IMG/VR virus record: IMGVR_UViG_3300042401_001180
Length of the DNA stretch: 64,000 nt
Source: a virus
Lineage: Duplodnaviria > Heunggongvirae > Uroviricota > Caudoviricetes
Reading direction: 5' to 3' (one strand)
The notes under the pieces are model-generated. The model searched no databases. It was not told the origin of the DNA and was given only the letters and a program-made list of their open reading frames with translations. The position numbers were made by a program, and so were the translations under genes. The stretch's first letter is position 1. Each line of letters begins with the position of its first letter. Below are positions 38,552 through 60,150 of this stretch, piece after piece.

Positions 38552-39229
38552 TTATTGTTTATTTTCTGTTGCGTATTTAATACCCATAATAGTTCCCACT
38601 ATTGAGAATGCGTTTGTTAGAAGTATACCAAATATGTTTGACCAAGCAGCCCCTATAACTTGAGTGTCTTTACCTATTACAAGTGTAAAGACATATACTC
38701 CTGTGGTAACAATACCAACACCAATAATGATGTATAGAGCAACTCTAACAATTGTTGATATCAGTTCTGTTTGGTTTTTCTTTTGGAGTATGTCCAAGTC
38801 ATTTAATGCGTTTGTCTTAGATTCTTCAGCCCTTATTCTTGCACTTTCAGATTTAATCATCTCCTTTTGTAGTTCTTGTTGAATCTTTTCGTTCTCTTCT
38901 CTCCAATCAATTAACTCACCATTCTGTTTTTCTATTTGTGTCTTTTGTTCTTCAGCCTCTTTTAGTGTTGATTGAATATCTTCCATCATTTTTTGATTCT
39001 GTTCGTTTAACGTTACAAGTTCTTCATTTTGTTTTTGTATTTTTTTTGTCATCTCAAGACGTTTTCTTCTTTTGTCCCCGTCTTTTGTTTCACAATCCTT
39101 TAAATACTTTTTAAAGTCCTCATCATTTTCAGTATCAATAAGTTTAGTAATATTACCTTCAAGACCTATACCTTTTTTAAGGTATAAGTCCATCAATGTT
39201 TTTTTAGTGTTACTATCTATTTTTATCAT
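38552..39229 (-). CDS. coiled-coil protein with C-terminal double TM (putative lysis accessory: holin/antiholin/spanin-like)
   Basis: Long Q/E/K heptad region, then two hydrophobic helices. Lies between the receiver gene and the endolysin gene. Confidence 0.45.
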   Translation of the reverse strand: MIKIDSNTKKTLMDLYLKKGIGLEGNITKLIDTENDEDFKKYLKDCETKDGDKRRKRLEMTKKIQKQNEELVTLNEQNQKMMEDIQSTLKEAEEQKTQIEKQNGELIDWREENEKIQQELQKEMIKSESARIRAEESKTNALNDLDILQKKNQTELISTIVRVALYIIIGVGIVTTGVYVFTLVIGKDTQVIGAAWSNIFGILLTNAFSIVGTIMGIKYATENKQ

Positions 39230-39663
39230 TTGTAAACTTTAAATGGTAATGTTCGATTTTTGTAACCGTCATAATCTTTTCTAAACTCTTCTAAACGTGG
39301 TTCAATGTCATCTGATTTGATAATCCAAAATTGAGCTCCTGCCTGAACAGCCTTTGCTTGTTCTTCTGGTTCATTACTTGATGATATAATCCCAATAACT
39401 ACGTGATTACCGTACTCAAAATTAATTTTTCTAATTAACTCAATACCATCAAAAGAACTACCAATGATGTTTAAATCAACAAACACACATTCAGGTTTAT
39501 TATTATCGTCCCCACTTTTGAACCATTTTTCAAATTTCTTTGCCGCTTCGTCAGAGCTATTTAACGCATTTAAAGACAAACTTATGTCCAATAAAGAACA
39601 CGCATCTTCAAATACTAAGTGGAATAAATCCTCATCATCAACTAATAATATTGAATCAATCAT
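39226..39663 (-). CDS. orphan response-regulator receiver domain protein (CheY-like)
   Basis: ILLVDDED acidic pocket, VFVDLNIIGSSFDG phospho-acceptor Asp, IGIISSS, and FWIIKSDD lysine all at canonical positions. No output domain. Confidence 0.7.
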   Translation of the reverse strand: MIDSILLVDDEDLFHLVFEDACSLLDISLSLNALNSSDEAAKKFEKWFKSGDDNNKPECVFVDLNIIGSSFDGIELIRKINFEYGNHVVIGIISSSNEPEEQAKAVQAGAQFWIIKSDDIEPRLEEFRKDYDGYKNRTLPFKVYK

Positions 39664-39678: not shown

Positions 39679-41124
39679 TTATTTGTTTATTTTAATTTTA
39701 ATTTTTGTTCCTGTTTCTAGTTTTTCAAACTCCATATTAAATCCGTGTTCTTCTAATATTGTTTTAGTGATTCCTAACCCTAAACCACTTTCAGAATCCG
39801 CATCTTTTTTTATTTTTCCACCAGTAACATTTTCAAATTCTTTTTGTGTAAAACCAATACCATTATCCTCAACAATCAAATCATTGTTTTCCATATAAAT
39901 TTTAACAATTTTAGTATCACTATTATTATATCTTAGCCCATTTTTAATTAAGTTATCAATAGCATTCCAAAATAAAGTTTCATTGACATTTAATGTTACT
40001 AAATCATCAAGTTCTACTTGATTTTTATATGAAGTATTTGTTAAATATTTTAATAATGATTCTTTTATATCAACCATATCTCTATCTAACACTACAGTAT
40101 GTTTTACAAGGTTTGTAAATTCATAAACACTTTTATAAACCTTCTGTGTGTGAGCCAACCCATCTTTTATCATTTTAATTGGGGATGTTATCTTTAGGTT
40201 GTTCATCTCGTCTACTGAAATTCTTTTTTCTAATGATGATAACCCTCTTGGGATATATGTGTTAATACCTGAGTGCATATCGTGTCTTATGATTCTAGCC
40301 GCATACTCCAAGTAAGTGTTTTTCTTATTGATATCTCTTAACTGACTTTCAATTTCAACATCTTGCACTTTAATCGTTTTTCTTTGTGTTAATACAACCA
40401 GAGTTAGAACCAAGATAAAAAGTATTATAGACGCCCAAATTAAATACATCTTTAATTTATTTCTCTCAACCTTTAAATCTTTGGTTTCTACTTTTAGTCC
40501 TCCATTTTCAAGGTTTAGTCCAATAATTTTTTTCTCCTTACCTAACGTTTTTATTGTCTCGTCTTTGGCATTAATAACATCTTTACTCTCACCATTTTTA
40601 AGAAGTTGTTCTTTTTCTTCAATTAATTTTTGTAACTTACCTTCAATTTCATTTGCAAGTTTTTTCATATCTGAAGGAGAAACATTATCATAAGATTTTG
40701 GTAAACTACTTAAAAATTCTTTATCCTTAGCCAAACTAGCAGCAACATCCGCAGATACTTCATCCACTTCAGGTACCTCGTCTTTTGGTGTCTCAAATAC
40801 GACTTCAGGTGCCAACTCTACAACATCAACATACCCTTTAACCCTTTCAAGGTACCAGTCAGCTGCGTCATACGCCCCCCTTTTATTTAGTAAGACACCA
40901 ATCTCCCTACATACATTTGCTTCAGATTTTGTAATATTTTTTTTAGATTTTAATAGATTATTAATCCCCACCTTATTAATAAGTTCTGTGATTTTAGAAT
41001 CATTAGGACACGTAGGGATTCCCTGGTTCAAAACAATTTCATTTGATTGTTTTTTTATTGTTTGGGAATTTAGATTAGTGAAACTAATTAAAAATAATAA
41101 AATTAATAATATAGTATTTTTCAT
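39679..41124 (-). CDS. sensor histidine kinase with signal peptide, ~220-aa extracytoplasmic domain, one TM
   Basis: H-box YAARIIRHDMHSGINTYIPRGLSSLEKR. HATPase_c N-box NAIDNLIKNGLRY, G1 EDNGIGF, G2 GLGLGI. Confidence 0.75.
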   Translation of the reverse strand: MKNTILLILLFLISFTNLNSQTIKKQSNEIVLNQGIPTCPNDSKITELINKVGINNLLKSKKNITKSEANVCREIGVLLNKRGAYDAADWYLERVKGYVDVVELAPEVVFETPKDEVPEVDEVSADVAASLAKDKEFLSSLPKSYDNVSPSDMKKLANEIEGKLQKLIEEKEQLLKNGESKDVINAKDETIKTLGKEKKIIGLNLENGGLKVETKDLKVERNKLKMYLIWASIILFILVLTLVVLTQRKTIKVQDVEIESQLRDINKKNTYLEYAARIIRHDMHSGINTYIPRGLSSLEKRISVDEMNNLKITSPIKMIKDGLAHTQKVYKSVYEFTNLVKHTVVLDRDMVDIKESLLKYLTNTSYKNQVELDDLVTLNVNETLFWNAIDNLIKNGLRYNNSDTKIVKIYMENNDLIVEDNGIGFTQKEFENVTGGKIKKDADSESGLGLGITKTILEEHGFNMEFEKLETGTKIKIKINK

Positions 41125-41126
41125 AA

Positions 41127-41723
41127 TTATAGTTTGATTTTATATGGATATCTAACAACAACAGGTCTCCATTTTTCTTTATAGTTTAATTCCCAATTTA
41201 ATCCAGGTTCTTGGGGATATTGTATATTGTATTTTTTCCATTCATTGTCCTGAGACACCGGACATCTCCTTACCAAGGAAAAATTACCTGTACGTCTATT
41301 ACCTATAAAAAAGTAACTACTTAAATCAATTGACATTATACTTGTATCTGAATATGAGTAGTATAAATAAGCATTGTCTACTGATGCGGTATATAACCAA
41401 TGCTCAATAGTATTAACTTTATTTTGTAAACTATCGTAAGTGTAAAACTTATGTTTAATTACAGTATCCAAACTATCAATAACATAAACTCTTCGATTAC
41501 AAACCTCAGTTAAACTATCAATTATTTTTTCTTGGATAGAAATATCTTCCTTATACCCATTAACTCTATATCTTTGGTTACTTAATAATAATTCAATATC
41601 TCTATATTGTTCTGTAGTCATTATAACCACAGAATCACCTTTAAGTTTTGTCTGTACTGGATAGTTTTGTGATAAACTTAAAAATGATATAATTGTAAAT
41701 AATAATGTTATAACTTTTCTCAT
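41127..41723 (-). CDS. secreted protein (198 aa) encoded between the two kinase genes
   Basis: Signal peptide. ATGA and 3-nt junctions to the flanking kinase genes. Confidence 0.5.
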   Translation of the reverse strand: MRKVITLLFTIISFLSLSQNYPVQTKLKGDSVVIMTTEQYRDIELLLSNQRYRVNGYKEDISIQEKIIDSLTEVCNRRVYVIDSLDTVIKHKFYTYDSLQNKVNTIEHWLYTASVDNAYLYYSYSDTSIMSIDLSSYFFIGNRRTGNFSLVRRCPVSQDNEWKKYNIQYPQEPGLNWELNYKEKWRPVVVRYPYKIKL

Positions 41724-43339
41724 TTAAATTTAATTTTCATTTTAGTTCCTATTTCATTTTTTTCACAGGTTATATCAAATCCGTGTTCTTCTAATATTGC
41801 AACACAAATATTTAATCCTAACCCTGTTCCTGATTCTTTTTGTCCTTCTTTTCTTGTATACGGTTTTGATAGGTGATCAAAATCTTCTTGGGTAATACCT
41901 CTACCATTATCTTGTATGTATACATATTTTTCATCTGAAGTTATTTTAACGAATTTGGTATCAGAATCATTATACTTCAACCCATTTCTAATTAAATTGT
42001 CAACTGCGGTACAGAATAGTGGTTCGTTTACTTCTATTGTTGGTAAATCCTCAATGATAACTTGACTACTATATGCGGTTGATGATAGATAATCGTCAAG
42101 TATACTTTTTAAATTACACTCTACTTTATTTAAAACCACATCTTTTTTAACTAGATTTGTAAACTCATACACCCCTTTATATACTTTTTGTGAGTGTTTT
42201 AATCCTTCTTTAATCATTTTAATTGGTGCTTCAATTTTTAATGATGCGATATCCTCAGAACTTAATCTTCTCTCTAAAGAACTTAATCCTCTAGGCATAT
42301 ATGTATTAATACCTGAGTGCATATCGTGTCTTAATATCTTTGCGGCATGTTCTAAGTAAGTGTTTTTCTTTTCTATTTCTTTCCTTTGTTCGTAAGAGTT
42401 AGTAATATCTGTTGCAATTTTCATAATACGATAAATCTTACCGTCTACACCAATAATAGGATTGTAAGTTGCTTGAAGATAAATTAAGTTTCCATCTTTT
42501 TTCTTTCTAATGATTTCACCCATAAAAAAATGCCCTTCTTTTAAAGTGTTCCAAAAGTTTGAATATTCTTCAGAGTCTTCTACTCCATCTTCAACAAATA
42601 TACTATGATGTTTACCAACGAGTTCATTTTGCGAATCATAACCTAAAGTACTTAAGAATAAATCATTTGCAAATTTTATGTTACCATCTAAATCAAATTC
42701 GATAACGGCATTTGATCTGTTAATTGCATTCATTCTATTTGATATTTCTTGTTCAGTCTTTTTTAAAGAAGTTAAGTCTTGACGAATTGACATAAACTCT
42801 AACAATTTACCATTTTCATCAAAACTACATTTAATAAAAGTATCCACATAATAAAGACTTCCGTCTTTTGCTCGATTAATACAAACTGAGTTCCAAAGCC
42901 CTTTATCTACAACAACAGTTTTGTACATATCAGACCAAAACTCTTTTGGGTGTGTTCCAGAATTTACAATATTGTGATCTTTACCAAGAACATCTTCTAA
43001 TGAATAACCTGAGATTTCGGTAAATTTTTGATTAACGTAGGTAATCTTTCCTTTTGCATCGGCTTTAGATATGATGGAAGAAGAGTTTAAGAAATGTTCT
43101 AATTCTACCAACTTATCCACCGATTCTTTAGATACGGTATCTTTTGTAGATTTAATAAAATCTTTAATTAATAATATTGATATGGGAATGTATGATATAA
43201 CCCCAAAGAATTCTAACCATCTAGTGATTTCTGTGGATTCTCGTAAACCAACAAGAACCGAAATTTTAACACACATATAAGTAACCATCAGTAATGCTGC
43301 GATAACTAATGTGATTTTTATTCTTAAACGATATTTCAT
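41720..43339 (-). CDS. sensor histidine kinase with N-terminal TM segments and two PAS domains
   Basis: PAS-like blocks (ITYVNQKFTEISGYSLEDVLGKDHNIVNSG...; KFANDLFLSTLGYDSQNELVGKHHSIF...). Same H-box as the other kinase (HDMHSGINTYMPRGLSSLERR). HATPase NLIRNGLKYN, DNGRGIT, GTGLGL. Confidence 0.8.
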   Translation of the reverse strand: MKYRLRIKITLVIAALLMVTYMCVKISVLVGLRESTEITRWLEFFGVISYIPISILLIKDFIKSTKDTVSKESVDKLVELEHFLNSSSIISKADAKGKITYVNQKFTEISGYSLEDVLGKDHNIVNSGTHPKEFWSDMYKTVVVDKGLWNSVCINRAKDGSLYYVDTFIKCSFDENGKLLEFMSIRQDLTSLKKTEQEISNRMNAINRSNAVIEFDLDGNIKFANDLFLSTLGYDSQNELVGKHHSIFVEDGVEDSEEYSNFWNTLKEGHFFMGEIIRKKKDGNLIYLQATYNPIIGVDGKIYRIMKIATDITNSYEQRKEIEKKNTYLEHAAKILRHDMHSGINTYMPRGLSSLERRLSSEDIASLKIEAPIKMIKEGLKHSQKVYKGVYEFTNLVKKDVVLNKVECNLKSILDDYLSSTAYSSQVIIEDLPTIEVNEPLFCTAVDNLIRNGLKYNDSDTKFVKITSDEKYVYIQDNGRGITQEDFDHLSKPYTRKEGQKESGTGLGLNICVAILEEHGFDITCEKNEIGTKMKIKFK

Positions 43340-44289: not shown

Positions 44290-44309
44290 ATTTTTCCGTT
44301 TTGATTTAT

Positions 44310-44319
44310 ACAAAGATAG
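44310..44319 (-). promoter_or_regulatory. Bacteroidetes-type -7 box
   Basis: Minus strand CTATCTTTGT (TAnnTTTG). Confidence 0.4.
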
Positions 44320-44359
44320 GTAAAATACTTATACCGCCAAACATATTGGTAAAAAAATA

Positions 44360-44430
44360 ATAAAATTTGTGATTAGTAAAGGATTCGAACCAATGACACG
44401 TCCATAAAATGGATTGCTCTAACCAACTGA
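44360..44430 (-). tRNA. tRNA-like gene, possibly Lys(TTT); weak anticodon and T stems
   Basis: Acceptor GGTTAGT/ACTAATC and D-arm GCTC/GAGC are good, with a GGTTCGAATCC T-loop. The anticodon loop ATTTTAT is closed by only 3 bp. Confidence 0.4.
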
Positions 44431-44517
44431 GCTAACTAACCATATAAAATATAAATAATAATATTCAGGTTGTCAATAATTCACATACATTTTAAATACT
44501 AAATATATTTATTTTAT

Positions 44518-45150
44518 ATGAAAAATATAATCAAAAGAGTTTTAAAAGAATTTGTTGAATCAAAAGATATTACACTGCAAGAGATTTTTATAGATCCTTA
44601 CAATTTAATTTTATCTGAAGGTAAGTCTTTTGTAAAAATACCAAACGGTACCGAATCAATATTATTAAGAAAAATAGAATCATATTATAATTGGCCACCA
44701 ACAGTAAATAAAATATGGTGTTCCGATATTAAAGAAAAGTTTAAGGAAGGTATACCTATAAAGTCATGTTTAAAAAAGTTTGAATTAAGTTTAACAAATC
44801 ATTGGATTCAAAGATTGTTTAGAACAAGTGAGGACGATTATAAATTGTTAAACCCTCGAACAGGTAATGTTGGTAAGTTTTATAACCCTTCTATTGTTAA
44901 TCCTGATATTTTTGAGGGTATTGAGTTATTTTTTAACAGTAAAGATAAGATTAATGATTTTATTGATAACTCAAAAAACTGGATTCCTTTAAGTGATAAA
45001 TTCATAATTTTAAAGTCAAAATCCTATCAAACAATTATAGAATTAAAAAAAATGGATCAGGGAACATATAGGGTAATATTCATAACACAAATCAAAGGTG
45101 TTCCGTTTTTTGATACCCCTGAGTTGAAAAAATCAAGATTAATAAAATAA
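44518..45150 (+). CDS. hypothetical protein (210 aa) with MKNIIKRVLKEF N-terminal family motif
   Basis: ORF followed by a terminator. Confidence 0.5.
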   Translation: MKNIIKRVLKEFVESKDITLQEIFIDPYNLILSEGKSFVKIPNGTESILLRKIESYYNWPPTVNKIWCSDIKEKFKEGIPIKSCLKKFELSLTNHWIQRLFRTSEDDYKLLNPRTGNVGKFYNPSIVNPDIFEGIELFFNSKDKINDFIDNSKNWIPLSDKFIILKSKSYQTIIELKKMDQGTYRVIFITQIKGVPFFDTPELKKSRLIK

Positions 45151-45152
45151 AA

Positions 45153-45185
45153 AAGGTGGGTTACCCCACCTCAGTTACACTTATT
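45153..45185. terminator. rho-independent terminator (minus-strand sense strongest)
   Basis: aaaaaaGGTGGGttaCCCCACC. The minus strand is followed by TTTTTTATTTT. Confidence 0.6.
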
Positions 45186-45405
45186 ATCGTCAAATGTACG
45201 ACGCCTGTTGGGTACTTACAGGTGAACCGATGATTACCGTCTTTCGACGTATTCGGGGGTACATCCCTCCTTTTCAATCACCCCACTAACCCCTAAAGGT
45301 TGGTGGATGACTTTTTATATGGAAAATCATAAAACCATTATCTCAATTCGATACATCAAAGATATATGTATTATATATAAATTCCAAACTTTTTAGTAAA
45401 TATTT
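45186..45405 (-). ncRNA. ORF-free, GC-enriched structured region (candidate ncRNA, function unknown)
   Basis: Nested hairpins (CGTCaaatgtaCGACG, CCGAtgattaccgtctttcgacgtatTCGG, GGGatgtaCCC). No ORF. Sits between the terminator and tRNA-Met. Confidence 0.3.
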
Positions 45406-45409
45406 TTTG

Positions 45410-45483
45410 TGGTCCTTGTTGGAATCGAACCAACCACCTACTGATTATGAGTCAGTTGCTCTAACCGAATGAGCTAAAGGACC
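45410..45483 (-). tRNA. tRNA-Met(CAT) (or Ile-LAU; anticodon CAT)
   Basis: Acceptor GGTCCTT/AAGGACC, D GCTC/GAGC, anticodon stem ACTGA/TCAGT with loop CTCATAA, T stem GTTGG/CCAAC. Confidence 0.8.
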
Positions 45484-45644
45484 TAATTGGTGGAGATTTG
45501 ATGCCAACGTATGATCACCCCTACGTCTCGTTTCTGCGTATTCGGTACTCCACCTTTGTAAGTTCCTCTTACTTACACCCCCATTCGTGGACTTTCCGAC
45601 ATCCCAATGGTTTTTACCGTCCTATCGGAGTCAGGTAACCGCTG

Positions 45645-45722
45645 ATGTCAGGGTGGGATTCGAACCCACAATGAACAACCTTTTTACGGGACTTGGTACC
45701 ATACCTCATTACACTCCTGACA
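45645..45722 (-). tRNA. atypical tRNA-like element (perfect 7-bp acceptor and T-arm, no canonical anticodon arm)
   Basis: Acceptor TGTCAGG/CCTGACA and T-arm GTGGG-TTCGAAT-CCCAC. The 44-nt internal region does not give a 5-bp/7-nt anticodon hairpin. Confidence 0.35.
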
Positions 45723-45887
45723 AACTTCGACTCTTCAGCTTTCTACTCCCAGCACCGAGGAATTGTATATAACTTAGCCCATCTCACCGCTGTGTGGGAA
45801 CTGAAGTTTATCGTCTTTTTCTTATCGTAAAGATAAACAATATAAATAATATAAACAATAATGGTGTCATAATTTTTTAAGTTTTTG

Positions 45888-45987
45888 TAGTCAGGACAGG
45901 ATTCGAACCTGTATGGTAATTTTTTCAGTACCTCCACAACCCATGGATTTACGTGGTCTTTGCGTCTACCAATTTCGCCACCTGGCT
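45888..45987 (-). tRNA. atypical 100-nt tRNA-like element (Leu-like 5' half GCCAGGTGGCGAAATTGGTAGACGC)
   Basis: Acceptor AGCCAGG/CCTGACT (one mismatch), Leu-like D-arm, T-arm ACAGG-TTCGAAT-CCTGT, variable-arm-like hairpin GGTActgaaaaaatTACC. The anticodon region is non-canonical with a 15-nt loop. Confidence 0.35.
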
Positions 45988-46320
45988 ATGTTGAGGGTGA
46001 GAAGCCCTCTGTGTTGTTGACTAGTTTAACCTACCCTAAAGTCATTTTAGGTACAACCGTTTTCTGTTTACTATGATGGTAAAGCTTTCACCACAAGGGC
46101 CGGTCTTCGTCAGCTCAATATCTATCCCTTTCTCAAGGGAACAACACAATATTGTTGATAGTGTTGGGATACCCGTCTCGTCCCAATCTTAACTGCATCG
46201 TCTGAGTTTTCTCAGGGCCCTCGGCAGGGGGTGCTGAATTCCTGATCCACTCAGGATTGTCGACATCCGTTGAGATGGGGGAAAACCACTATCAATATTT
46301 TCAAAGAACTTTTTTCCTTA
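45988..46320 (-). ncRNA. GC-enriched ORF-free structured region (candidate ncRNA; tmRNA or other not confirmed)
   Basis: ~330 nt with local GC well above the genome background (e.g. cagggccctcggcagggggtgctgaattcctgatccactcaggattgtcgac). Immediately downstream of promoter repeat copy 1. No ORF. Confidence 0.35.
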
Positions 46321-46380
46321 TTTGTTTAACAAAGATATGTAATCTATTTCAATCTACCAAATCTTTTTTTACTTTTTTTT
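46321..46380 (-). promoter_or_regulatory. repeated strong promoter module, copy 1 (A-rich UP-like tract, -33 TTTG, -7 TATCTTTG)
   Basis: Minus strand aaaaaaaagtaaaaaaagaTTTGgtagattgaaatagattacaTATCTTTGtt. Near-identical to 47640..47700. Confidence 0.55.
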
Positions 46381-46546
46381 GTGGGACCCGCTCCCCACAC
46401 TGAACTTGTACTTCGTTCTATTAAGCGTTTTTTTCAGTTTTTTTAACCAATCAGTATTCGTGTTAGTTTTAACAAATTTAAATCTTCCTGATTCGCAAGT
46501 TCCTGATAAAACTTCTCTCATCATTCATTTGTATTAATTGTTTATT

Positions 46547-46619
46547 TGGTGGACACTGTGGGAATCGAACCCATACGATCTGATTGCAAATCAGTCGACC
46601 TGCCGTCGGCATCAGGCCC
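46547..46619 (-). tRNA. tRNA-like element with encoded CCA; anticodon loop contains TTGCAA (Cys-GCA or Ala-TGC); acceptor stem does not pair
   Basis: T-arm ATGGG-TTCGATT-CCCAC and a 3' end AGTGTCC-A-CCA. The 5' region GGGCCTG... is not complementary. Possible pseudo-tRNA or part of a larger RNA. Confidence 0.3.
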
Positions 46620-46624
46620 ATTTG

Positions 46625-46696
46625 TGCGGGTAGAATGAATCGAACACTCATCTCCACATTGGAAGTGTGGAGTAATAACCATTATACGATACCCGC
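46625..46696 (-). tRNA. tRNA-Gly(TCC)
   Basis: Acceptor GCGGGTA/TACCCGC, anticodon stem CCACA/TGTGG with loop CTTCCAA, T-arm GAGTG-TTCGATT-CATTC. Confidence 0.8.
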
Positions 46697-46702
46697 TTAT
46701 TG

Positions 46703-46795
46703 TACTGACGGTTGGATTCGAACCAACGTTTTAAACTTACCGCTACAGGCATAGATGATATAAGCATCCACTGGTACGTCAGCATAATCGTCAGT
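46703..46795 (-). tRNA. atypical 93-nt tRNA-like element (perfect acceptor ACTGACG/CGTCAGT and T-arm; candidate anticodon hairpin GGATG-CTTATAT-CATCT; 25-nt variable region)
   Basis: Folding gives anticodon TAT with one GU pair, an aberrant D-arm and a very long variable region. Confidence 0.35.
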
Positions 46796-46867
46796 CTTTC
46801 CTGACCGTCACCCCCAACCCACAGGTATGAACCCGTATCGTAGTAAAGCTTGGTTGGCTATTAGTTG

Positions 46868-46939
46868 TTGCAGGAGAAGGGTTCGAACCTCCGACCTCAA
46901 GGTTATGAGCCTTGCGAGCTACCACTGCTCTATCCTGCG
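46868..46939 (-). tRNA. tRNA-Met(CAT), initiator-like (C1xA72 mismatch)
   Basis: Acceptor CGCAGGA/TCCTGCA with a C1-A72 mismatch, D GAGC/GCTC, anticodon stem CAAGG/CCTTG with loop CTCATAA, T-arm GGAGG-TTCGAAC-CCTTC. Confidence 0.7.
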
Positions 46940-46960
46940 ATATACCATTTGTAGTTTAGT

Positions 46961-47000
46961 AGTTGACTCAAACTCTCGTTTCACCATCTTGAGTCAACAG
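46961..47000. other. perfect 10-bp inverted repeat hairpin (GTTGACTCAA-n17-TTGAGTCAAC)
   Basis: Read directly from the sequence. A second imperfect hairpin GGGAGTAGG...CCTACCCCC lies at 47075-47120. Confidence 0.5.
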
Positions 47001-47120
47001 GTTAATGCACTTTACGAGTTTCCCGTTTCTTACAACCACAATATTTTTATTTCAATGAACTTCTTCTGTCTTCACGGGAGTAGGACACCAACCTCTAACT
47101 TCCTACCCCCGTTCTCTGTC

Positions 47121-47165
47121 TTACAAAGATATGTAATCACTTTTGATTTGCCAAATTTTTATTGA
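47121..47165 (-). promoter_or_regulatory. repeated promoter module, copy 2 (-33 TTGgcaaatcaaaagtgattacaTATCTTTG)
   Basis: Shares the TATCTTTGTAA -7 region and an upstream A-tract with copies 1 and 3. Confidence 0.5.
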
Positions 47166-47655
47166 ATAAAACTTCCCCTTCTTTCATATATTCCTTTTTC
47201 ACTTTTTCAATCAAGGATTTTAAAGCAGTGTTACCTTGTGCTGTTTTTTTAAGATCCTCAAGTTTAGGGTTACCTTTAAAACCAACCTTAGTATAAGACG
47301 TTCCGTTTTCTTTACCCCACACAATGTTAGTTAAACACAATTTGTCGATTTTCTTTTGTTCCTTTTCTTTTTCTTTCTCGAATAAAAGATTATCAATAAC
47401 TGAATCGAGTGTTTGTGGATAATCAAATTCTTTGGGTAAAGTTTTACAATAGTTATAAACCTCGTTTAAAACTTTAGACATACCTTCATAAGGTTGAACA
47501 TTTGTATTACCACCGTGTCCGTCATTTTGAGCATATGCAGTTTTTTTACCGTTTATAAAAACATCAGCCATAAAACAAGTAGTTTCTTCGCTAAACATTT
47601 TGTTAATCTTTACATTTTTAAGTTCTATTTTCATAATGTTTTTTTTGTTTATCAA
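47137..47655 (-). CDS. hypothetical protein (172 aa)
   Basis: ORF downstream of promoter copy 3. Confidence 0.5.
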   Translation of the reverse strand: MINKKNIMKIELKNVKINKMFSEETTCFMADVFINGKKTAYAQNDGHGGNTNVQPYEGMSKVLNEVYNYCKTLPKEFDYPQTLDSVIDNLLFEKEKEKEQKKIDKLCLTNIVWGKENGTSYTKVGFKGNPKLEDLKKTAQGNTALKSLIEKVKKEYMKEGEVLFNKNLANQK

Positions 47656-47700
47656 ATGTAAGTAATCTATTTCAATCTACCAAAACTTTTTTTACTTTTT
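47640..47700 (-). promoter_or_regulatory. repeated promoter module, copy 3
   Basis: Minus strand aaaaaaaagtaaaaaaagtTTTGgtagattgaaatagattacTTACATTTGat, about 90% identical to copy 1. Confidence 0.5.
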
Positions 47701-47706
47701 TTTCTG

Positions 47707-47790
47707 TAGTCCGGAAGGGACTTGAACCCTTAATCCCTCATGGGAATTTGATTTTAAGTCAAACGTGTATACCAATTCCACCACCGAACC
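47707..47790 (-). tRNA. tRNA-Leu(TAA)
   Basis: Acceptor GGTTCGG/CCGGACT (two GU pairs), anticodon stem TTTGA/TCAAA with loop CTTAAAA, long variable arm TCCCatgaGGGA, T-arm AAGGG-TTCAAGT-CCCTT. Confidence 0.75.
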
Positions 47791-47867
47791 ATTTTACCAA
47801 TATGTCAAAGAACCCTTCTTGTTTGTTCTACAAATATAAAACTTTTTTTCTATTCGCCAAACACCTA

Positions 47868-47900
47868 AAACAAAAAAACCCCTCTTTGTTAGAGAGGGGC
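47868..47900 (-). terminator. rho-independent terminator (minus strand)
   Basis: Minus strand CCCCTCTCTaacaaAGAGGGG followed by TTTTTTTG. Confidence 0.6.
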
Positions 47901-48075
47901 TTCAAAATTTATTATATAATTAATTTATCATACCATCTCCTTATAGGAACGATCCTCAGCTATCGCCAATCCGCCTAATAATATGATATGTAAATTTTTC
48001 ATTTGCGTTTTTATTTGTTTTGTTATAAATATATGTAACTTTTCAAAAGTGTCAAGTTATTTCATATTTTTTTAA

Positions 48076-51406: not shown

Positions 51407-51820
51407 TTACAAAGATATGATTTTTTTTAAATTATCCCTTTCTTGATCTCGTTTTTTAATTGTTTCTCTTTTATCGTATAGTTTTTTACCTCTACCAATA
51501 ACAATAACCATTTTTATTAATCCCTTGTCGTTGGTGAATATTTTATATGGTACAATTGTTAATCCTTTATCCAATCGTTTACTGATGTCCTTTATTTCCT
51601 TTTTATTCAAAAGTATTTTAATGTCTCGTTTCTCGTCTGTTGAAGTTATGTTGATGTTTCTAACGTACATTTCATTATTTTTTAAATAACAATATGTATC
51701 GACAATGCTAACCTTATTATTTTTTATGGATTTAACCTCATTACCTACCAATACAACACCGCATGTGTATTTTTCAATAATCTCATACTCAAAACCTACC
51801 TTTTTGTTTGTTATTAACAT
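51407..51820 (-). CDS. smpB: SsrA-binding protein SmpB homolog
   Basis: Residue pattern NKKVGFEYEIIEKYTCGVVLVGNEVKSIK...SIVDTYCYL...RKLLL..KEI..L.....GLTIVPYKIF.....IKMVIVIGRGKKLYDKRETIKKRDQERD matches the conserved SmpB fold signature (EVKS, GKKxxDKR, basic tail). Confidence 0.7.
   Translation of the reverse strand: MLITNKKVGFEYEIIEKYTCGVVLVGNEVKSIKNNKVSIVDTYCYLKNNEMYVRNINITSTDEKRDIKILLNKKEIKDISKRLDKGLTIVPYKIFTNDKGLIKMVIVIGRGKKLYDKRETIKKRDQERDNLKKIISL
51408..51417 (-). promoter_or_regulatory. Bacteroidetes-type -7 box
   Basis: Minus strand ATATCTTTGT. Confidence 0.35.
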
Positions 51821-53295: not shown

Positions 53296-53468
53296 AAATA
53301 AAAGATGATGAATAACTTTATCAGGAATCTTGGCTTGGAAGCCTTCACACACCATTAGAGAGTTGGGTTGTTACATCAATACAATTAAGATTGAATACCT
53401 TTCCTTAGTGTGTACCCTTACGACACGTCTCTCCACGTCTGTCATTCTACGCATTGTATCATCTTTTG

Positions 53469-53548: not shown

Positions 53549-53621
53549 GGAGTATACCGGGAATCGAACCCGAATCGTAGGTACCACAAACCTAAGTCTT
53601 AACCGTTAGACGATACACTCC
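53549..53621 (-). tRNA. tRNA-His(GTG) with encoded G-1
   Basis: Extra 5' G pairs with discriminator C. Anticodon stem TAGGT/ACCTA with loop TTGTGGT. Confidence 0.8.
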
Positions 53622-53639
53622 ATATAAAATTTTTCTCGG

Positions 53640-53709
53640 TACCGATAAAGGGTATCGAACCCAATGACATCCAGGATATGAGCCCGGATCGGAAACCTTT
53701 CCTATCGGT
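53640..53709 (-). tRNA. tRNA with CAT anticodon (third CAT tRNA; Met or Ile-LAU), short D-arm
   Basis: Acceptor ACCGATA/TATCGGT, anticodon stem CCGGG/CCTGG (one GU) with loop CTCATAT. Confidence 0.55.
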
Positions 53710-53715
53710 ATTTTG

Positions 53716-53801
53716 AGGAAGACATTGGAATCGAACCAAATACCCTTACGGGTACATCTCGCTTAGCAGGCGGACCCTATCGCCATCAAGGTTTATCTTC
53801 C
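53716..53801 (-). tRNA. tRNA-Ser(GCT)
   Basis: Acceptor GGAAGAT/GTCTTCC, loop CTGCTAA, long variable arm TACCCgtaaGGGTA. Confidence 0.7.
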
Positions 53802-53805
53802 GTAG

Positions 53806-54751: not shown

Positions 54752-54759
54752 AAATTTTT

Positions 54760-54800
54760 GGGTATAAAAAAACCCTAACTGTTTTGAGTTAGGGTCTTAT
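54760..54800 (-). terminator. rho-independent terminator (minus strand)
   Basis: Minus strand GACCCTAACTcaaaacAGTTAGGGTT followed by TTTTTTAT. Confidence 0.6.
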
Positions 54801-55136
54801 ATTTCTTTTATATTTTTAGTTAATCTTTATCAACTCATAAATGAAACTGCCCTAATATGTGACTTAAGCGTACGATACACGTTAAACGACCACTGAATGC
54901 TCGGGTTACAAATGTTCATATGTCTATTAGTTGTTTTCATCTTGTTATAAATATATCGTTGTTTCTAAAAGTTTTAATTCTTGTACAAATTTAGTTGTTT
55001 TTTTCTATTTGACAAGTGTTTTTTAAATAATTTTCTTGTTCTTCATCCAATCTACGTAAAAACACGTAGTAATCTTCTGATTCTATGAACTCGTTGTGTA
55101 TTAATTCTAATATTTCTTCCATTGTTTTTTTGTTAG

Positions 55137-59159: not shown

Positions 59160-60150
59160 AAACCTAAAAATAAAAACCTGAGATTACAGTTTTTGTTGAG
59201 AACCTTTCGAGTCATTATTGTTTCTACTCTTATCCACCATCTTTTGAATGGTATTTCTCAGTGACGATTATTTAGGTGAATCACTCCTTGAGGTACTAGT
59301 TACTCTCTCATTACTCAACTCTCTTCGAGACTGCCGTCCCAACTCTTCCTTGCGGGAATAGAGGTTTTTGGTAAGAATATAGGTCAACTTGCGGTCTTCC
59401 TATGCAATGAACAGCTCATTACTATGTAGTCACCTTTCACTATTACCTGACGAACACTTTTGCTTTTTAGTTTTAGTTTTACCTTTTCCATAAAAGTTTT
59501 TGTGTTGTGGATTGATAGAAGTAGTGGTCCGTCACGGGCTTCGTTATCTTTTGAACAACGAAATACTCAACTACTCCTTGAAATGTCCCCATCTCAATAT
59601 TTCAAGACTACTTCGAGATTTAACCTTTGGTAAGGTTCAATCAAGGTTAGTAACAACACCACTTGTACACCAACATACCTTTCGGTTTTAAGTATCCTAT
59701 CATAATGGAACACGCAATAATAAAATCGGATAATCTTATTTTTTGCAATACCCCTACGAGTTATTCCTTTTGGTGTTCCCACCTCAAACTGACAACCCAC
59801 ATTGCCAATTCATCTAACCACTTTCCCTACAGCGTTGCCCTCGGTACTAAAGATTAAACGGTATCCCGCTTGTGTACTCGATCTCGACAAATCCGAAGAC
59901 TCACCAAGACGCAAATCAGTTACACTTCTGACTCACTTTATCCTACTTTCGTAGTTTATTTTAATGGACCATACACGGCCCAATGACTTAATTTAGTTTC
60001 ACACATAAAGAAAGGGAGGTGTTAAGTCTCATCTTTTAATTGTGACGACCGTTTCAGTCGGATTTAGATTTTCAAAGAACGTTTCAGGACTTTTCCTGAT
60101 TTGTTTTACAAATTTAAGTCTTTTTTTTCATTAAGACAAGTGTTTGTGAA
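59160..60150. ncRNA. ~1-kb ORF-free, GC-richer region: candidate large structured RNA / intron-like / origin element (unassigned)
   Basis: The track has only short spurious ORFs here. Composition is clearly less AT-rich than the flanks (e.g. gactgccgtcccaactcttccttgcggg). Bounded by a terminator upstream and a T-rich tract downstream. Confidence 0.3.

Follow-up and report, generated by a model that had tools for sequence, protein, structure and literature searches.

Here, we focus on a GC-enriched region (positions 45988–46320) of a 64,000-nucleotide stretch of phage DNA (Caudoviricetes; IMG/VR record IMGVR_UViG_3300042401_001180), referred to throughout as the window, and on the RNA elements that this region appears to encode. 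The source is a jumbo phage of ~270 kb and ~31% GC (contig Ga0502572_000001). The region probably consists of two independent, conserved and structured non-coding RNA (ncRNA) modules, termed A and B, which would form the 5′ part of a polycistronic transfer RNA (tRNA) transcript on the minus strand; we place the probability of this reading at about 0.6. Both modules belong to recurrent families that are nearly confined to viral and metagenome contigs, where they lie within tRNA arrays, hundreds of them in uncultured phages, and on the strand of the tRNAs. The fold of module A is supported by compensatory base changes among its homologues. Unless stated otherwise, the features described below lie on the minus strand.

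The region was originally predicted, from its sequence alone, to be a structured RNA, since a GC-rich island without open reading frames (ORFs) stood out in an AT-rich phage. The composition agrees with that description: GC content is 44.1% (0.441, against 0.314 for the whole window and a claimed background of ~30%), which places the region at the 98th percentile among all 333-nt windows, and every 333-nt window that is as GC-rich or richer is a tRNA region. Module A alone has a GC content of 51%, and the GC-rich run quoted in the original prediction is the plus-strand sequence at about 46214–46281. The absence of ORFs is essentially correct, as only mechanical ORFs of 35–48 aa with TTG or ATG starts overlap the region. 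Folding of the single sequence is only moderately better than that of shuffled sequences (for the whole region, z = −2.3 with the minus and −1.8 with the plus strand; −3.1 for module A and −2.3 for module B), and the evidence for structure is the homologues, not the folding energy. Comparison with these homologues, one of the checks originally proposed, gave a conserved fold with compensatory pairs in module A. What stands of the prediction is a structured RNA, with covariation and on the minus strand; what does not stand is that it is one element, there being two modules, or that it is a transfer-messenger RNA (tmRNA), RNase P RNA or intron.

Distribution and fold of the two modules

Searches for relatives took several routes. 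Contigs found through exact protein matches were all identical over the region (the source contig differs from the window by one base in 20.6 kb), and this route is uninformative on variation for that reason. Syntenic loci were fetched via the neighbouring PAS histidine kinase (29 loci) and a 172-aa ORF (5 loci), and no homologue of the region was found by BLASTN or nhmmer in these 34 loci, whose neighbouring proteins are 64–91% identical. A 23-mer of the GC-rich core had zero exact matches in viral contigs; among GenBank phages, BLAST with the 2-kb tRNA region returned tRNA matches only, and module A alone had no match in 50,697 phage records. The first five homologues were recovered by nhmmer (E = 3e-29 to 4e-8) from 120 viral loci that had been fetched by a k-mer from the T arm and acceptor stem of the tRNA-like gene downstream. 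Their alignments divide the region into two modules with independent distributions.

Homologues of module A were then gathered by a pattern taken from its most conserved part (GTTAAGATTGGNNNGAGACGGGTA), which fixes GUUAAGAUUGG...GAGACGGGUA. The pattern occurs in 83 IMG/VR viral contigs and at least 120 metagenome contigs, and in 185,579 species genomes it was found only in three short contigs of metagenome-assembled genomes. The resulting set holds 127 distinct full-length sequences. A covariance model (R1) finds exactly one copy of module A per locus, scores the copy in the window at 129 bits (E = 6e-32) and adds none when run on 1.7 Mb of loci chosen without the pattern. For module B, a pattern from its 5′ part matches at least 120 viral contigs. 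Combinations of the modules vary widely among loci; a close relative (locus L222) has the same promoter, leader and module A and no module B. The original prediction had named absence from close relatives as evidence against a structured RNA. Such absence is what was found at the 34 syntenic loci, yet the finding stands, as the modules recur in many other arrays.

Known RNA families do not account for either module. Rfam 15 was searched at the gathering threshold over the whole window, and at E ≤ 10 over 3.6 kb and over 356 nt (45980–46335). Nothing in the region reaches the gathering threshold, and at E = 10 there are only matches at chance level (E > 1, with scores far below the cut-offs), so that the Rfam scan originally suggested names no known family here. 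The GOLLD and ROOL models give nothing in the region at E ≤ 10, GOLLD being found only at 59175–59578. ARAGORN, run for standard and permuted tmRNAs, calls no tRNA or tmRNA inside the region and no tmRNA or tag peptide in the window; no tRNA lies within 45988–46320, the nearest being the tRNA-like gene at 45888–45987. Topic searches and literal sequence-string searches, covering 8 million preprints and open-access papers, found neither module described. Modules A and B are thus, as judged from these searches, new families of a known kind: structured, possibly self-assembling ncRNAs in phage tRNA islands.

Module A (46154–46296) is a conserved structured RNA of ~143 nt, in which helix P1 closes a four-helix junction that also holds a long three-segment arm (P2-P3-P4), P5 and P8. 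The 5′ strand of P1 (UUGAUAGUGG, 46286–46295) pairs with 46155–46163; its nine pairs are 96.9% paired among homologues, with compensatory changes in all nine. The arm (46235–46286) runs from P2 through an internal loop to P3 and P4 and ends in a 7-nt apical loop. Its segments are paired at 76%, 94% and 88%, respectively, and all 17 of its pairs covary. At least five unrelated sequence versions of the arm exist, and every variant folds into the same three-segment hairpin when sequences are folded individually. P5 (46224–46227 with 46193–46196; C-W-G-C with G-W-G-C) encloses two further elements, P6 and P7. The P8 hairpin (46164–46186; UUGGGA-CGAGACGGGUA-UCCCAA) has an 11-nt loop, CGAGACGGGUA, with the invariant GUUAAGAU just 5′ of it; two of its pairs covary (AU 70/GC 29 and GC 60/AU 40), and invariance of the loop and its 5′ flank is partly by construction, both having been set by the search pattern. 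The invariant junction strand GCACCC(CC) (46227–46234; A-N-CACCC) contains an ACCC that is a candidate partner of the GGGU in the P8 loop. These two could form a pseudoknot, and they are 99.8% complementary, but both are invariant and hence outside the reach of covariation.

The fold was evaluated on two alignments. In 53 sequences aligned by MAFFT, 89.4% of cells are paired, against 34–44% when the strands are slid, and both-side changes occur in 31 of 43 pairs; the covariation score was matched by none of 500 shuffles. In 100 distinct sequences aligned to the model, 93.7% are paired (34–46% slid) and 35 of 46 pairs show compensatory changes, with a covariation score of 0.453 (0.156 shuffled) that was again reached in 0 of 500 shuffles. 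RNAalifold on the MAFFT alignment recovers P1, P5 and P8 only, and the arm was defined by folding of each sequence and re-alignment with the covariance model. Frequent G-U pairs fit only a transcript of the minus strand, and this sets the strand as minus. With this pattern of G-U and compensatory changes, a conserved small protein encoded in the region is unlikely.

A tRNA or T-loop lies within ~25 nt upstream of module A in 68 of the 109 distinct copies with sufficient flank, and an RNA element follows directly downstream on the same strand in 92 of the 109 (a tRNA in 67, module B in 20 and a tRNA-like gene in 5). The usual spacers between module A and a tRNA are 3–7 nt. Module A therefore fills a 'tRNA slot' in arrays, and in the window it is the first element after the promoter.

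Module B (45993–46147) is a highly conserved, predicted stem and pseudoknot core arranged around a 107-nt insert. Its conserved core reads GUGUUGU-UCCNNUGAGAAAGGA-[variable]-ACAACAC-AG-AGGnn-UUCUCA-nCCUC, and comprises helix P1b (46141–46147 with 46011–46017), hairpin a (46125–46140; loop UGAGAA), the insert (46018–46124) and hairpin b (45993–46009; loop UUCUCA). The loops of hairpins a and b are complementary. P1b is paired in all 95 distinct sequences, and every change in it is wobble-preserving; over the module, which is nearly invariant, 96.5% of cells are paired, against 39–52% slid. Hairpin b shows a few compensatory variants, GAGG/CCUC, AAGG/CCUU and AAUG/CAUU. Real covariation is limited to 3 pairs, however, and the fold of module B is plausible rather than proven. 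The insert is lineage-specific, measuring 21–110 nt in relatives, and for the insert of the window no homologue was found among related loci totalling 4.1 Mb.

Two architectures of module B can be distinguished. In B1, the type found in the window, the module typically ends 3–8 nt before a tRNA or an AGUCAGG... tRNA-like gene, and in most of the B1 copies listed such a gene begins a few nucleotides past hairpin b. In B2, the 5′ domain of module B heads a larger conserved RNA ending ...GAGGGUGCUAA (30 loci). The B2 RNA, seen in L280, L254, L260, L270, L284, L294 and others, continues from the module B domain with ...ACAACACAAAUGAGUUCUCAGCAAGUAGUUA ... UAACUACGUGACCCUACUCUUAU ... AUAAGAAAGAGGGUGCUAA. 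It is often preceded by CAUAAAGAUACUAUCAGUAAUGGUAGAU, and Rfam does not detect it.

Self-complementary elements of module A

Two segments of module A are palindromic. The first is the sequence GUCGAC in the apical loop of the long arm (46259–46264), a candidate kissing-loop contact. It is present in 114 of the 127 distinct sequences; GUGCAC (2 sequences) and GUAUAC (1) are likewise self-complementary, GUUGAC (1) is so by wobble pairing, and arms of other architecture carry other palindromes, e.g. GCGC, GGCC and GGUUAACC. The second is P6 (46214–46221), a loop-less palindrome of 8–10 nt that reads AGGGCCCU in the window and CGAGGCCUCG in most homologues; further examples are CUGGGCCCAG, CGAUGCAUCG, CAGUGCACUG, CGAGCGCUCG, CAACGCGUUG and CGAAGCUUCG. 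The segment is palindromic in 58 of 60 distinct versions, and its core is 97.3% paired, with covariation at all four pairs. The bases at alignment positions 135 and 139, two bases apart, form GC in 68, UA in 26, AU in 3 and CG in 2 sequences, and the adjacent central bases 137 and 138 form GC in 88, CG in 5 and AU in 2. Seven central tetranucleotides occur, all of them palindromic: GGCC, UGCA, GCGC, CGCG, AGCU, UAUA and GUAC.

Pairs between adjacent or nearly adjacent bases are impossible within one chain, from which we infer symmetric self-association. The same signature has been described in OLE loop L9.3 and GOLLD loop L21a, where tetranucleotides switch among GGCC, GAUC and AGCU and where cryo-electron microscopy (cryo-EM) confirmed symmetric intermolecular kissing (PMC12286853). 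Palindromic loops with covarying adjacent bases, the criterion for homo-oligomeric RNAs drawn from that study, are found in module A, which shares with GOLLD and OLE palindromes whose covarying central bases include GGCC, UGCA and AGCU and which in GOLLD and OLE are validated by cryo-EM (PMC12286853). Module A is therefore likely to self-associate symmetrically, via the apical loop and P6.

An alternative hairpin, P7 (46202–46215; CUGAG-AAAA-CUCAG), overlaps the 3′ half of P6 and is exclusive with it. Of 60 distinct segments, 32 carry P7 with 4 bp or more in the stem; the hairpin has the form stem-AAAAC(U)-stem, and its stem sequences differ and covary. P7 was counted sequence by sequence, as its register varies between sequence types. 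The overlap of P6 and P7 suggests that module A has two conformations.

A bolder proposal, which we put forward only tentatively, is that module A represents a new class of small (~140 nt) self-assembling phage RNAs in which two orthogonal palindromic contacts would give closed symmetric multimers (dimers, rings or cages). It would be a miniature functional analogue of GOLLD and ROOL from tRNA arrays and, with module B and at least four other recurrent inter-tRNA modules, part of an uncharted toolkit of structured RNAs in the tRNA islands of environmental phages. GOLLD (RF02032) and ROOL are large, ornate RNAs of phages and prophages that lie by tRNA islands and form homo-oligomeric nanocages. 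They are co-oriented with the tRNAs of phage islands and probably co-transcribed with them (PMC5737381, PMC12286853). The modules share with them this niche, the tRNA strand and the lack of an associated protein. They differ in several respects: there is no similarity in sequence or model; module A has ~140 nt, against 400–800 nt or more; its oligomerization is predicted; and the copies of module A found are all on viral and metagenome contigs, none in cultured bacteria or prophages.

Intermolecular loop–loop pairing builds a defined multimer in the dimerization initiation site (DIS) of human immunodeficiency virus 1 (HIV-1) and in phi29 pRNA. The HIV-1 DIS is a hairpin loop with six self-complementary bases, GCGCGC or GUGCAC depending on subtype, and the latter is one of the apical-loop variants of module A. 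The analogy is mechanistic only, as sequence, organism and context are unrelated, and module A, unlike the DIS and pRNA, contains P6 as an additional, longer palindrome as well as a four-way junction.

Phage tRNA islands, known as the home of the RNA-only nanocages GOLLD and ROOL, on this evidence hold further RNA families. At ~140 nt, module A is small enough for biochemistry, probing, crystallography and cryo-EM, and its self-association is a testable prediction. If true, the proposal would take the quaternary structure of natural RNAs down to a far smaller scaffold, would help to explain why phages invest in non-tRNA RNAs within tRNA operons, and would flag the 'gaps between tRNAs' as genes for annotation pipelines.

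Proposed origin of the transcript and competing explanations

The window contains two tRNA arrays on the minus strand, with 21 tRNAs called by ARAGORN and 21 Rfam tRNA matches. A predicted promoter of the Bacteroidota type (46330–46361; TTTG at −33, N20, TATCTTTG at −7) lies just upstream of module A, inside a 66-nt repeat present in three copies (46318–46383, 47112–47177 and 47641–47706). The promoter repeat was correctly noted in the original prediction, as was the location 5′ of tRNA-like elements: on the minus strand, the region starts 10 nt past the −7 box and stops at the first base (45987) of a 100-nt tRNA-like gene. Identification of 46361–46330 as a promoter follows from the consensus; the motif TTTG-N17–21-TAnnTTTG occurs 17 times in the window against 4.6 expected, a number reached in none of 100 shuffles, and around the first tRNA array there are six minus-strand copies. 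A leader motif, GTTCTTTGAAA (46299–46309), is situated between promoter and module A; it is also found upstream of module A or B in many relatives (L222, L215, L228, L233, L191, L168 and L101, as read from the sequence rows). Two candidate roles are a second element of the −7 type and a conserved leader at the 5′ end. The motif recurs 10–25 nt downstream of the TAnnTTTG −7 box where tRNA-array transcripts start, in these loci and in L049.

Transcription would begin from the promoter at 46361–46330 and proceed along the minus strand. Cleavage by RNase P at 45988/45987, the 5′ end of the tRNA-like gene, would define the 3′ end of a leader RNA, and where a tRNA is present upstream its 3′ processing would set the other end. 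In the window, the product would be a leader RNA of ~300–330 nt carrying A and B, while elsewhere module A alone (~140 nt) would be excised from between two tRNAs; the tRNA-processing machinery would thus release a discrete, stable RNA. Module A would self-associate via its GUCGAC-type apical loop and P6, with P7 as an alternative conformation of the monomer, and would act in trans during infection. By analogy with GOLLD and ROOL, it may act on translation or the tRNA apparatus in lytic growth. Module B would be a compact stem with a loop–loop pseudoknot that is either cis-acting or travels with the tRNA-like gene or larger RNA that follows.

Release of non-tRNA RNAs in this manner has precedents. 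The stable RNAs C and D of phage T4, which lie in its tRNA cluster, and MALAT1/mascRNA, with ends generated by RNase P, are non-tRNA RNAs that lie within or beside tRNA genes, share their transcript and are freed from it by tRNA-processing enzymes. Module A differs from RNAs C and D in that its processing is a prediction and that it has no similarity to any GenBank phage, T4-like phages included.

Several points weigh against the reading of the region as two RNA modules of a tRNA transcript, or against parts of it. The start of transcription, the processing and the stability of the RNA are predictions. Syntenic relatives without the region indicate that the modules are dispensable and patchy in distribution. 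The search pattern was fixed, so invariance within it and in ACCC/GGGU is uninformative, and diversity is skewed to close relatives; alignment A3 was fitted to the model. The apical-loop contact is drawn from three to four variant sequences. P6 and P7 are mutually exclusive and cannot both form, which leaves two candidate architectures at that site. RNAcofold (ViennaRNA) with two copies of module A gives trivial domain-swapped dimers only and was not used as evidence. Covariation in module B is weak (3 pairs, 5 cells) because the module is so conserved.

The alternative that survives best, though we regard it as unlikely, is that the region works in cis as a 5′ leader, whether as riboswitch, attenuator or chaperone of processing or folding, and governs how the downstream tRNA-like gene is expressed or matured instead of being an RNA in its own right. 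In the window the region does follow a promoter and precede the operon's first gene, what follows module B is nearly always a tRNA or tRNA-like gene unless the module serves as the 5′ domain of a larger RNA, and the alternative pairing of P6 and P7 is switch-like. Module A, however, is usually situated between two tRNAs with spacers of 3–7 nt and with neither promoter nor terminator, which is not the position of a 5′ untranslated region. No terminator-like stem followed by a U run was found on the minus strand after either module, and neither matches a known riboswitch model. Riboswitches are not known to target tRNA genes.

The compactness of the folds raises a second alternative, namely that at least one of the modules is a self-cleaving ribozyme of a new class, which would trim the tRNA transcript and produce the ends of neighbouring tRNAs or tRNA-like RNAs, without or alongside RNase P and RNase Z. 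The predicted folds of both modules are compact, include pseudoknots and leave many invariant nucleotides unpaired (GUUAAGAU, CGAGACGGGUA and CACCC in A; UGAGAAA and UUCUCA in B), and both lie a few nucleotides from tRNA ends, module B typically 3–8 nt before the 5′ end of the next RNA. Cleavage by a ribozyme is nevertheless unnecessary, since the tRNA flanks supply sites for RNase P and RNase Z, and module B can also be the start of a larger RNA that is not followed by a tRNA. No Rfam ribozyme family matches at E ≤ 10, and the core motifs of hammerhead, twister and pistol ribozymes were not seen by eye. We consider self-cleavage quite unlikely.

The patchy distribution, with syntenic relatives lacking the region, could also point to selfish or mobile DNA cassettes or to decayed tRNA or intron remnants that spread by recombination, the palindromes acting at the DNA level. 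Locus L222, with its promoter, leader and module A but no module B, the many combinations of modules and the lineage-specific insert of module B are in keeping with this. Modular shuffling fits cassettes of RNA genes equally well, however, and selection at the RNA level is indicated by compensatory and G-U changes that keep RNA helices intact. The strand is the same as that of the adjacent tRNA wherever one lies within ~25 nt. No flanking terminal inverted repeats and no transposase-sized ORF were found in 44300–48000 (target-site duplications were not specifically searched), and there is no similarity to tRNA or intron models. Such an origin is improbable.

Least tenable, and very improbable indeed, are the candidates named in the original prediction (a tmRNA body, an RNase P-like RNA or an intron remnant), which are likewise structured, GC-enriched and tRNA-linked RNAs and in whose favour can be cited an SmpB homologue encoded by the phage (about 51407–51820), an element resembling the tRNA-like domain of tmRNA or tRNA-Ala 230 nt upstream (46619–46547, 17 bits) and a string loosely resembling RNase P CR-V in the module B insert (ACAGAAAACGG, our own reading): no tmRNA, RNase P or intron model, group I introns included, matches 45980–46335 at E = 10, and the features that define these RNAs were looked for and are absent. 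For tmRNA, inspection by eye shows no tRNA-like ends, with neither acceptor nor T-arm ends, ARAGORN gives no tag frame, and the core of module A has no conserved reading frame, the changes in its helices being compensatory. For RNase P RNA, no complementary CR-I and CR-V strands are seen by eye: the 5′ AAGUUC and 3′ AACGGUU are not complementary, so that there is no P4, and ACAGAAAACGG sits in the non-conserved insert of module B. For group I and group II introns, the region interrupts no gene, having a promoter on one side and a complete tRNA-like gene on the other.

Neighbouring RNA genes and other observations

The tRNA-like gene directly downstream of the region (45888–45987, 100 nt) combines an acceptor stem, a T arm and a D arm of the class-II type with an over-long middle; it scores 34.3 bits with the Rfam tRNA model and is not called by ARAGORN. 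It belongs to a family that keeps the stem and the two arms constant (AGUCAGGUGGCGGAAUGGUAGACGC ... ACAGGUUCGAAUCCUGUCCUGACUA) around a hypervariable middle of 35–170 nt. The k-mer from its T arm and acceptor stem is found in at least 120 viral contigs, with up to eight copies in 5 kb (L049). ARAGORN either misses members of this family or assigns them inconsistent or four-base anticodons.

Upstream of the region, a 73-nt element (46547–46619) resembles tRNA-Ala(UGC) or the tRNA-like domain of tmRNA, with a weak match to RF00023 (17 bits). It has a 5′ GGGCCUGAU...UCGAC, a G3:U70 pair, a tiny D arm and an encoded CCA. The SmpB homologue (PF01668) is encoded at about 51407–51820 (minus strand), but no tmRNA is detected in the window by ARAGORN or Rfam. 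GOLLD itself is present at 59175–59578, 13 kb from the region and on the minus strand, where the Rfam model matches over its full length (323 bits, E = 1e-91).

Insertions of 20–60 nt occur in several tRNA genes, e.g. in a 94-nt tRNA-Ile(UAU) (46702–46795, minus strand), and in another locus (L018, 7100–8280) insertion-bearing tRNAs were seen by eye, none of which is called by ARAGORN. The insertions have the appearance of intron-like sequences placed in or near the anticodon arm. In the second tRNA array, GC-rich gaps of 130–380 nt without a tRNA call (53621–53804, 53296–53467 and 54752–55135, minus strand) fall in the same top GC percentile.

Other GC-rich, non-tRNA stretches are found in the same operon as the region and on the same strand, at 47115–46940, 46867–46796, 45830–45723 and 45644–45484. 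They recur in 25, 23, 26 and 8 viral loci, respectively (nhmmer, E ≤ 1e-5), and none is in Rfam. For the last of the four, one phage has a copy with 87% identity, although the neighbouring kinases there share only 55%.

Further along the minus strand lie parts of a two-component system: a PAS-PAS-HATPase histidine kinase (41720–43339), a second HATPase_c protein (39679–41124) and a response-regulator receiver domain (about 39226–39663). The DNA of the second HATPase_c protein is 69% identical to that of the first kinase over ~650 nt, and the histidine kinase shows conservation across 29 viral contigs, the longest measuring 322 kb.

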